Source: Escherichia coli (lineage in GTDB: Bacteria > Pseudomonadota > Gammaproteobacteria > Enterobacterales > Enterobacteriaceae). From it: a stretch of 64,000 bases of DNA. Position numbers: made by a program. The stretch lies in assembly GCF_003790525.1 (NCBI RefSeq), contig NZ_CP033635.1, one strand, 5' to 3'. Of this stretch, positions 42,701-45,700 are shown in pieces; the first letter of the stretch is position 1, and every line of letters begins with the position of its first letter.

Positions 42701-45700
42701 GATCAAACCTTAAAAGTTGCCAAGCTGGCCTCAACGAAATATTACGACAATTTGCCCACCAGCGGAAACGAGCAAGGACAAGCATTCCGTGATATTGAGC
42801 TGGAAAAAGTATTGCTCGAGGCCAGTCAGCAATTTGGTATTGGTGCGCAATTTGGGGGTAAATATTTCGCTCATGATATTCGCGTCATTCGTCTGCCGCG
42901 TCACGGTGGCTCTTGCCCGATAGCTATGGCGCTCTCCTGTTCTGCGGATCGCAATATCAAAGCAAAAATTAACAAGCACGGTATCTGGCTGGAAAAACTC
43001 GAACACAATCCGGGGCAATATATTCCAGCCTCACTGCGGGAAGAAAATCACGCGCAACATGTACAGCTGGATCTAAACCGTCCGTTGCGTGACGTGATGC
43101 AGGATCTCGCCAGATTACCGGTAGGCACCCGCGTGTCGTTAAGTGGTCCCATCGTAGTGGCGCGCGATATCGCCCACGCCAAAATAAAAGCGCGGCTGGA
43201 TAGCGGCGAACCGATGCCGGATTACCTGAAGCATCATATTGTCTATTACGCTGGCCCGGCGAAAACACCGGAGAACATGGCCTGCGGTTCACTGGGTCCA
43301 ACCACGGGCGGTCGAATGGACGGTTATGTCGATACCTTCCAGGCGGCTGGCGGCAGTCTGGTGATGTTATCGAAAGGTAACCGCAGCCAGCAGGTCACCG
43401 ATGCCTGTCACAAACATGGCGGCTTCAATCTGGGGAGTATTGGCGGTGCAGCTGCGTTACTGGCGCAAGAATATGTCAAAAGTCTGCGTTGCCTGGAATA
43501 CCCGGAGCTGGGTATGGAAGCGGTGTGGATGATGGAAGTGGAAAATTTACCCGCATTCATCCTGGTAGATGATAAAGGCAATAATTTCTTTAGTCAGTTT
43601 GAGCAGCAACACCGCTGCGCCAGTTGCCCTGCGGGACATTAAGGAAAATGAATGGAAGCGCGAATTTCAACTGAACGGCATGTGCAGCGCCAGCAGAAAT
43701 TGAAGGAACAGGTCGATACGCGCGTCGCGGCGGCGATAGAGAAAAAAGGGATTTTGATTGTTTTCACCGGCAATGGCAAAGGGAAATCCACTGCCGCGTT
43801 TGGTACTGTGACGCGCGCGGTGGGTCATGGCAAAACGGTGGGGGTTGCGCAGTACATCAAGGGGCAATGGGACAACGGCGAATACAACCTTCTCCAGCCG
43901 CTGGGGGTTGAGTTTCATATTATGGGAACCGGTTTTACCTGGGAGACACAGAACCGGCAAGCGGATATCGACGCGGCGAAAGAGGTCTGGTCGGAAAGCA
44001 AACGGATGCTGGCTGACAAGCGTTACGACTTAGTGGTGCTTGATGAGCTGACCTATATGCTGGCTTACCATTATCTGGATACCGAAGAAGTGATCGCTTC
44101 TCTGCAAAACCGCCCGGCACAACAAAGTGTCATTGTCACCGGACGCGGTTGCCACAGTCAGATATTAAAAATGGCGGATACGGTCAGCGAAATCCGCCCC
44201 GTCAAACATGCTTTTGATAACGGCATTCAGGCCCAGCCGGGTATCGACTGGTAATAACTGCGCCTGGCATCCCGCCAGGCGCAGGTTTTACATCTCCTGC
44301 GGTACGACCGATTTCGCCAGCAACCATTCACGAAATTGCTGCAAGTGCGGTGAGTCAGACTTCTCTTCCTGCCACGTCATAATAAAACGATTACCGGTAC
44401 GAATAGGCACATCACAGGGAATCACCATATCGCCACTATCCAAATCATGTTGAATAGCGAACCGTGGTAACAGCGCCACGCCGAGATTAGAGCGCACGGC
44501 GGCAATCAGCATTGAAAGCAAATCGAAACGTGGTCCGTTATTGACCAGCGGACTGCTAACGCCAGATAAAGCAAACCACTCTTCCCAGCCAGTAATACGG
44601 GTGCTTTGATGCAGAAGTGGTAACTCAGTAAGCAGTTCTGCCACTGACAGTTTTTGATCGGACATTGCAAGCAAACTGCCGCTGCATACCGGCAAAATCT
44701 CCTCATCAAAGAGATATTCTACTTCCGCCCAGGGCGCGCAAAAATTTTCGCGCATAATGACAGCATCGTACTCCCGATTAAGAAAATCGCCGTTATTAGC
44801 TAAAGAATGAATATTAACAATAATATCGGGATGTAACTTTGTGAATTCATGTAAATTTGGGATTAACCAGTGGGTACTAAACGTAGGATTCACGGCAAGT
44901 TCAATAACCTGAACCGTAGGCTGCCAGGTCATAATGGTATTGGTATCGCGTTCCAGCTTATTTAATGTTTCTTTTACTATCCCCAGGTAATACTTCCCTG
45001 CATCATTAAGAAAAATGCGTTTTTTAGAGTGTGAAAATAACGGAGTATGTAAAAATTCCTCCAGCGCACTTACTTGTCTGAATACTGCACTTTGGGTTAA
45101 CGCTAACTCCTCTGCCGCTCTGGTATAACTTTCATGACGTGCGACGACCTCAAAAGTCACCAGCAGTTCCGTTTTAGGTATTTTTCCTCGCATAATGCCT
45201 TCCCTTAAAAATAGTTGAAACTATCAAAAAACCATTACTTATTGCTAAGTAATGGCAACCAAAGCAGCAATCAATATTTTATAAAAATCATGTTCGATAT
45301 TTATAACCTGGTAAGCCTGGCGTGACAATTGTCTTAATCAGATAATAATAATCCGAAAAGCACAGCACCTTTCGAATTATCAGGAATTACATTAAGTGAA
45401 AATTATTAAATTGATATCATTTATCATATCTGTGGATATTATGATAAACAATCAACATAGATTTTATTTTTGATTTATAGCATATCCCTCTAAGAATTTT
45501 TGCGATGCTTCAATATCCGGGGTAAAGACCCGATCCTGACTGACAAATGGCACGACTTGACGATAAGCGGTGAACATCGCTTTTGTTGATTTACTTAACG
45601 CTACGGTCAAACGCTGGGAAGCCAGTGCATCAGGTAACGATTCGAAATTCGCCGTCGTTCTTATTCGTGGCTTGCGGTCGGTCGCGGCAATCCACAGTGG

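Follow-up and report, generated by a model that had tools for sequence, protein, structure and literature searches.

A 64,000-nt stretch of DNA from Escherichia coli (RefSeq assembly GCF_003790525.1, contig NZ_CP033635.1; hereafter the window) carries, in an island between cydA and sucD, the genes of a B12-dependent glutamate pathway and, at their end, a gene for a LysR-type transcriptional regulator (LTTR). The pathway cluster consists of glutamate mutase, methylaspartase, an AtuA/DUF4387 pair, a glutamate carrier, the mesaconase FumD and an adenosyltransferase. We give an even chance to the reading that the product of this gene is a working regulator that specifically serves the methylaspartate-pathway cluster of enterobacteria and would act through a conserved box upstream of glmS. 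The association of regulator and cluster was already sketched by Kronen and Berg (2015; PMC4682846); new here are the pseudogene that makes up part of the supposed leader of the regulator gene, a long form of the island that carries hut genes, orthologues in a divergent arrangement and a candidate operator.

The pathway is found in about a fifth of complete E. coli genomes, O157:H7 included, and in many strains of Citrobacter, Klebsiella, Salmonella, Yersinia and Morganella. Its sole biochemical study found no inducing condition in enterohaemorrhagic E. coli (EHEC) (PMC4682846). The regulator is an experimental handle on the induction signal and could show when the pathway runs and whether it is of relevance in the gut.

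An intact regulator gene that stays with the cluster

The reading frame of the regulator (Table 1) is intact. Positions 44200-45860 of the window are 100% identical to E. coli SMS-3-5, in which the protein is WP_001214258.1, and to many other strains; the counterpart in O157:H7 Sakai, ECs_0755, is also intact. RefSeq names the product 'LysR substrate-binding domain-containing protein' and places it on the strand opposite to cobO. Its architecture is that of an LTTR, with an N-terminal winged helix-turn-helix (Pfam HTH_1, PF00126, residues 9-67, E 7e-18, 64.7 bits against a cutoff of 26.6), a C-terminal LysR substrate-binding domain (LysR_substrate, PF03466, residues 96-293, E 4e-28, 98.6 bits against a cutoff of 28) and a length of about 300 aa, and the N-terminus MRGKIPKTELL is kept in all orthologues. 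The best match to a named subfamily was GcvA (NCBIfam NF008352; 221.8 bits, below the curated cutoff of 288), which is also the closest solved structure (8y6u, phmmer E 9e-43); the choline-sulfate regulator (TIGR03418) scored 158 bits against a cutoff of 325, and DsdC (NF007491 and TIGR02036) 147.2 and 109.4 bits against cutoffs of 316 and 352. Since all these scores are below their cutoffs, the protein is of the GcvA-like LysR type and is none of the named regulators: an uncharacterised, ordinary member of a very well-known family. Against other Escherichia species (dS ~0.83), the ratio of non-synonymous to synonymous substitution rates (dN/dS) is 0.04-0.05. This is strong purifying selection, which argues that the regulator is in use, and it persists although Escherichia has lost neighbours of the gene that are found in other genera.

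Degraded alleles were also seen. In some E. coli (L049/L050, 3001-3907; P0074, P0003; L numbers denote loci) the gene is either frameshifted, giving pieces of 189 and 127 aa, of which the 189-aa piece stands for 180 member sequences, or has an in-frame deletion of 22 aa (279 aa). Locus L050 also has a split fumD and L058 several split genes.

In complete E. coli genomes the occurrence of the regulator and that of the pathway genes coincide almost perfectly, the former being present in 1127 of 5426 and glmE plus mal in 1131. Scanning a genome collection gave 37 loci, 33 of which were informative (an orthologue of at least 79% identity with its downstream flank visible); the genera represented are Escherichia, Citrobacter, Salmonella, Klebsiella, Enterobacter, Lelliottia, Pluralibacter and Buttiauxella. 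Cluster genes adjoin the regulator in all 33, mostly in the full order from glm to fumD-cobO with a convergent LysR gene, the exceptions being two Escherichia loci without cobO and gltP and one truncated locus. Throughout about 12 genera, orthologues adjoin cluster genes. Pseudescherichia (P.) vulneris has a 71% identical orthologue, convergent after fumD. In Yersinia enterocolitica (63%), LysR-fumD-cobO is divergent from a sumT-kinase-glmS-glmL-glmE-mal-atuA-DUF4387-carrier operon, and in Yokenella (57%) the regulator gene is divergent from an importer-glmSLE-mal-atuA operon. Morganella failed as a natural control without a regulator: its glm-mal genes (in M. morganii, L052) have no regulator within 10 kb, and a 61% orthologue at another locus (L055, 1-10912) starts 31 bp after cobT, the end of a cbi/cob operon, and converges on carrier-fumD-cobO. 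In Paludibacterium (45%) a LysR gene is directly divergent from glmS, and in Leeia (44%) the context is unrelated, so that the link to the cluster is lost at about this identity. The association thus holds across five or more gene orders, and fumD(-cobO) is the neighbour found most constantly. The regulator gene is convergent on cobO in E. coli and about ten other genera, and divergent from the glm operon in Yersinia and Yokenella. Read from gene order and co-occurrence, this pattern supports the view that the regulator belongs functionally to the glutamate mutase/methylaspartase/FumD cluster, of which it is probably the dedicated switch.

Other genes accompany the regulator in some genera. 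An AraC-family regulator adjoins it in Citrobacter, Salmonella and Klebsiella (L011, 8758-9645; L013, 7923-8828 and 8807-9595; L044, 20676-21368); a PocR sensor domain is recorded for the Salmonella copy, and for the Klebsiella copy, which is shorter (230 aa), only the AraC helix-turn-helix domain is. Citrobacter also has a divergent sumT, and Escherichia, Enterobacter and Buttiauxella have neither gene; tblastn found no remnant of these PocR/AraC or sumT genes in the window. In Salmonella enterica subsp. arizonae CCUG 6322T, an in-frame stop in glmE (…VLQT*HTGK…; L034, ~19100) makes the cluster of this type strain look inactivated.

A candidate operator upstream of glmS

For three Escherichia species, Citrobacter, Salmonella and Klebsiella, we compared the 450 bp that precede glmS in an alignment. 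Between flanks of about 66% identity, a 22-bp block (Table 1) is kept to 100% in seven species of at least four genera, P. vulneris included. The island has no second dyad like its core, TTGA-N7-TCAA (34079-34093), and TGA-N7-TCA has the T-N11-A geometry that is typical of LysR boxes. On the 3' side of the block follow a conserved AGACACTCC and then an invariant TATTAA (34130-34135), which may form part of an extended -10 element; this would put the centre of the box about 56 bp before the transcription start so implied.

The 8-mer TCAATTGC occurs once or twice per locus of about 21 kb, and is absent from two 6.6-kb loci and from Escherichia sp. E1V33, which has TCAATTGA; in each of the five full loci carrying the invariant block, one copy is the block upstream of glmS. 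In the Yokenella locus there are just two copies, one between the LysR gene and the operon divergent from it and one upstream of glmS; both have TTGTCTTCA-N7-TCAATTGC in common. Variants of the form TCAATTGT are found upstream of glmS in Yersinia and Morganella, and the Morganella variant, together with the orthologue encoded elsewhere, would be compatible with action in trans. Six aligned genera, each with the box or a near variant of it, have the same recognition helix, LTQSAVFRQ; the helix differs in Paludibacterium, which is without the box. As phylogenetic footprinting, these data are suggestive of a LysR box.

Sites for global regulators were considered as well. The box was rejected as an FNR site, being one base too long and there being no match with two or fewer mismatches in 33665-34210, and its spacing does not fit CRP. 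Some 190 bp before the putative glmS start there is a second conserved block, GATCACAAA (33935-33952, + strand). Taken as TTAGA-N6-TCACA it is CRP-like with two mismatches (33935-33950), which is chance level window-wide, and it is far from the promoter. For autoregulatory sites, a position weight matrix (PWM) made from five sites was compared with shuffles in 11 tests. The region upstream of the E. coli LysR gene gave P~0.02 and that upstream of Morganella fumD P~0.03, both uncorrected over the 11 tests, and the others were not significant.

We propose that the regulator gene is transcribed from a promoter of its own within the AT-rich 270-bp spacer in front of it, and that an oligomer of the protein would bind the TTGA-N7-TCAA box, which precedes the glmS start codon by about 125 bp and lies some 56 bp before a weak promoter whose -10 is conserved. 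Together with a small-molecule co-inducer it would activate transcription of the 10-kb operon from glmS to cobO, and this transcript would end at a hairpin in common with the regulator gene (44258-44284). The convergent layout of E. coli would have arisen by rearrangement from the divergent one, which Yersinia and Yokenella have kept. The sequence-only reading had cast the LysR protein as a candidate pathway regulator that would sense glutamate, methylaspartate or mesaconate and control the mut/fumD genes. Its role as candidate regulator is strengthened by co-occurrence, linkage, selection and the conserved box, which lies in the very promoter region named there (33665-34210). Glutamate is disfavoured as the metabolite sensed, because glutamate with or without cobalamins did not induce the cluster: Kronen and Berg (2015) found no methylaspartase in O157:H7 grown anaerobically with glutamate, in the presence or absence of three cobalamin forms (PMC4682846). 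Mesaconate or 3-methylaspartate would be the more likely co-inducer, and because the link to fumD is constant, our preferred guess is mesaconate or its precursor methylaspartate.

The regulator spacer, a hutH remnant and the edges of the island

As had been noted from the sequence alone, the region upstream of the regulator gene (45194-45560) is AT-rich, with a G+C fraction (GC) of 0.313 against 0.507 for the window, and the gene is transcribed towards the adenosyltransferase gene, converging on cobO. The same 367 bp had been taken for a long leader. The stretch is not uniform, and this idea is weakened because part of it is a pseudogene remnant: only 45194-45463 is a true non-coding spacer, and 45464-45560 is the 3' end of a decayed hutH gene. 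If the promoter candidate in the spacer (Table 1) is correct, the 5' untranslated region of the regulator would be about 100 nt long and would contain a terminator-like hairpin. Both hexamers of this candidate are kept, 16-17 nt apart, in E. whittamii, Escherichia sp. E1V33 and the long-form island; a stricter promoter scan did not list it. The spacer can be aligned end to end with the long-form island of locus L057, with the promoter-like hexamers and both hairpins of the spacer retained, and L050 aligns at about 90% from its 3' part through the spacer (blastn).

The inverted repeat nearest the start codon (45231-45256) is confined to Escherichia. With its T-run it may be a terminator-like hairpin or attenuator in the predicted leader, an operator, or without role; we rejected it as a LysR box, since its even spacing (4-nt centre) does not fit T-N11-A, and its absence outside Escherichia and the terminator-like T-run also speak against it. 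The 11-bp stem of the imperfect hairpin further upstream, AATAATCCGAA/TTCGGATTATT, is perfect in other Escherichia and in L057, and the hairpin is a candidate terminator of the hut operon that is deleted in the window. No Rfam RNA or riboswitch was found at E<=1 within 31000-47000.

The hutH remnant is recognised by its match to the lyase of L050, residues 511-556 of which correspond to 45604-45467 of the window (87% identity) and residues 378-397 to 45655-45596 (tblastn). Its stop codon is at 45466-45464 and recognisable fragments extend to about 45655; the rest, up to 45757, is island-specific DNA without a K-12 counterpart. Longer remnants are retained in E. whittamii and Escherichia sp. 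E1V33. In a variant E. coli island, genes for an Amidohydro_1 protein (hutI-like), an arginase-family protein (hutG-like) and a 556-aa aromatic-lyase-family protein (hutH-like) lie directly upstream of the LysR gene and in the same direction. The order in this long form (L057) is sucD, an rtcB-like gene, hutU, an NCS1 permease, hutD, hutI, hutG, hutH, a 270-bp gap and LysR, followed by the convergent cobO...glmS. It occurs in 144 of the 5426 complete genomes (hut region, L057 3930-11671), with no GntR-type HutC in the island, and brings histidine breakdown into physical linkage with the glutamate pathway. Another 975 genomes have the short form seen in the window; with the long form, this gives the 1119 genomes in which the LysR gene is of full length. 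A near-perfect palindrome resembling an ARG box, TTTGAATTTATATTCATA (L057 3762-3782), lies some 150 bp before hutU.

On the right, alignment with K-12 gives common sequence only from 45758 onwards (sdhX, sucD). The island therefore reaches 45757, in place of mngR-mngA-mngB, with its left edge near 31830. The LysR gene, which the sequence-only reading had called the last gene of the island, is its last intact gene, and the island ends at 45757/45758 rather than at 45560. This junction lies exactly at the terminator of sdhX, which is intact; Rfam gave no match for sdhX at E<=1. The open reading frame (ORF) at 45570-45761 (+), or the stretch of normal GC, was rejected as a remnant of K-12 mngR, there being no K-12 similarity left of 45758. 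The slot between cydA and sucD also holds the cluster in Citrobacter, Salmonella, Klebsiella and P. vulneris, so that it is an old variable region and not an insertion specific to E. coli.

Table 1. Features of the regulator, its proposed target and their surroundings in the window (dG, free energy; CDS, coding sequence)
Feature	Position	Strand	Basis and remarks
Invariant 22-bp block ATTTTGAAAATAGATCAATTGC, candidate LysR recognition site	34075-34097	+	Upstream of glmS; binding predicted
Extended -10-like element TGaTATTAA	34127-34135	+	TATTAA invariant across genera; predicted from alignment
Proposed target operon glmS-glmL-glmE-mal-atuA-DUF4387-gltP-fumD-cobO	34211-44254	+	RefSeq; order kept in 30+ loci
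G+C-rich hairpin between the cobO and LysR stops	44258-44284	.	dG -25.0 (+) / -24.4 (-) kcal/mol; terminator scan
LysR-type regulator CDS	44288-45193	-	301 aa, ATG start, stop codon included; ORF list, translation and RefSeq
True non-coding spacer upstream of LysR	45194-45463	-	270 bp, GC 0.285; equals the hutH-LysR intergenic region of long-form islands
Perfect 11-bp inverted repeat followed by T6	45225-45256	-	GCCATTACTTA gcaa TAAGTAATGGt, dG -13.3, 32 nt before ATG
Sigma-70-like LysR promoter candidate	45300-45328	-	TTGTCA (45328-45323), N17, TATAAA (45305-45300); predicted from sequence
Imperfect hairpin	45346-45382	-	dG -16.2; about 80-120 nt past the hutH stop codon, upstream of the promoter candidate
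Remnant of decayed HAL/PAL-family ammonia-lyase gene (hutH)	45464-45757	-	tblastn/blastn against L050 hutH; alignments with Escherichia relatives and K-12
sdhX small RNA (3' UTR, untranslated region, of sucD)	45758-45858	-	Terminator 45766-45783; K-12 annotation and alignment, terminator scan

Comparison with known regulators

GcvA, the activator of glycine cleavage in E. coli, resembles the regulator in its two-domain LysR architecture and size and matches it over the full length, but the genomic context here has nothing to do with gcvTHP, and the gcvA gene proper of E. coli lies elsewhere. The protein GcvR modulates GcvA; a partner of this kind is not seen here. DsdC and the choline-sulfate regulator (TIGR03418) are of the same GcvA-like branch and, as pathway-specific regulators, serve small catabolic clusters and respond to an amino-acid-like substrate; both are divergent from their targets, whereas the E. 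coli regulator described here is convergent. The classic dyads of divergent LysR systems are ATAC-N7-GTAT for BenM/CatM and TGAA-N5-TTCA for MetR. The candidate TTGA-N7-TCAA has the same 15-bp interrupted-dyad geometry as this class, at a typical distance upstream of a weak promoter. Divergent transcription with autoregulation, a common though not obligatory feature of LTTRs, is not found for the E. coli gene; unlike the classic divergent LTTRs, it lies 10 kb from the candidate box and has no convincing autoregulatory box of its own.

Regulators of other families stand beside comparable clusters. PocR of Salmonella is a regulator next to a B12-dependent catabolic cluster. In clostridial clusters for glutamate fermentation a GntR-type putative regulator has been noted (PMC4682846, Fig 4). 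Both accompany B12-dependent catabolic clusters as the LysR protein does, but they belong to different protein families, and Escherichia has no PocR-type gene, not even as a remnant in the window. The gene studied here was drawn by Kronen and Berg (2015) as a putative LysR-family regulator ('LTTR') beside CobA/FumD (PMC4682846, Fig 5), and their paper was the sole match in the literature searched on glutamate mutase together with LysR or regulator.

Alternative explanations

Several observations weigh against a dedicated LysR switch that acts from the glmS box. O157:H7, which has an intact copy of the regulator, expressed no methylaspartase under any condition tried (PMC4682846), and ECs_0755 is not mentioned in the literature searched by locus tag. 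A convergent gene 10 kb away from the proposed operator, as in E. coli, is not typical of a LysR-type regulator; box-like sites found upstream of the regulator with the PWM are weak and inconsistent, with none in Salmonella or P. vulneris; and some strains have frameshifted or internally deleted alleles. In Citrobacter, Salmonella and Klebsiella the AraC/PocR regulator could be the main switch, and the glmS box could belong to another factor. Taken further, the box would be bound by a PocR-domain AraC protein or a global factor, the LysR protein would be minor or unrelated, and the E. coli cluster would be essentially silent. We regard this as improbable. It would explain why no cluster expression was detected in O157:H7 (PMC4682846), and AT-rich promoter regions typical of silenced acquired DNA, the degraded alleles and the lack, in most species, of a robust motif common to the LysR upstream region and the glmS promoter are in keeping with it. 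The box, however, is equally invariant in Escherichia and P. vulneris, both of which are without an AraC/PocR gene, its spacing fits neither FNR nor CRP, the motif is duplicated exactly in the LysR-divergent region of Yokenella, and a dN/dS of ~0.04 speaks for a regulator in use. It is also doubtful that the regulator mainly controls the supply of the B12 cofactor (uptake, synthesis or adenosylation) and not the catabolic enzymes, with the gene divergent from it (sumT or a corrinoid/siderophore-type importer) or fumD-cobO as its ancestral target. Such a role would account for the divergent sumT of Citrobacter and Yersinia, for the divergent set of FecCD, ABC, TonB-receptor and binding-protein genes of Yokenella, for the place of the Morganella orthologue behind the cbi/cob operon, 31 bp from its last gene, cobT, for cobO as the convergent neighbour in most genera and for the adjoining PocR-domain regulator in three. 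Yet the regulator is retained without sumT in Escherichia, Enterobacter, Buttiauxella and P. vulneris and without cobO in L004, L005 and P. vulneris, and it is glmS and no B12 gene that has the conserved box. The divergent B12 genes of Yersinia and Yokenella head operons that run into glmSLE-mal, so that control of B12 supply and control of the methylaspartate cluster overlap as explanations.

The long form of the island suggests another reading, in which the regulator belongs to the hut operon and was left as an orphan by deletion in the short form of the window; we judge this very unlikely. In the 144 complete E. coli genomes concerned, hutU-permease-hutD-hutI-hutG-hutH are followed after 270 bp by the LysR gene, all co-directional, in an island without hutC, and joint control would make metabolic sense, histidine breakdown leading to glutamate. 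But no hut genes adjoin the orthologues of Citrobacter, Salmonella, Klebsiella, Yersinia, Morganella and Yokenella, 975 E. coli genomes retain an intact, selected regulator after hut loss, and there is no site like the glmS dyad upstream of hutU, where the best match resembles an ARG box. A broader reading, which we think rather unlikely, would make the protein a trans-acting master switch that couples hut, glm-mal-fumD and corrinoid supply (sumT, cob, importer, cobO) by sensing an intermediate such as mesaconate. Evolution has repeatedly rearranged these three modules around the regulator; hut leads from histidine to glutamate, and glm-mal-fumD, which is B12-dependent, from glutamate to mesaconate/citramalate. 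If this were so, the effector would reveal the condition that turns the pathway on in EHEC and other enterobacteria.

Layout of the cluster and neighbouring features

The RefSeq order across the island is cydA, two hypothetical genes, glmS, glmL, methylaspartate mutase E, methylaspartate ammonia-lyase, an AtuA-family gene, DUF4387, a symporter of the dicarboxylate/amino-acid type, FumD (annotated as class I fumarate hydratase), cobO, LysR and sucD. cobO (43652-44254, +) and the regulator gene end 33 bp apart, and the hairpin between them is likely a shared bidirectional terminator. The AtuA-family and DUF4387 genes (38757-40441, +) come after the methylaspartase gene in every version of the cluster examined, those of Morganella, Yokenella and the betaproteobacterium Paludibacterium included (also L046, L047, L052, L053). 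The two hypothetical ORFs between cydA and glmS in E. coli (314 and 140 aa; 32217-33664, +) are AT-rich, and Citrobacter, Salmonella and Klebsiella have a gene-free 1.2-kb spacer in their place. A perfect FNR consensus, TTGATTTATATCAA, lies at 31749-31762 in the cydA upstream region common to K-12. Farther to the left, 21740-22273 holds four identical copies of TTGATTAAAAGTCAA, about 120-210 bp apart, which from their position after ybgF are probably tRNA-Lys genes.

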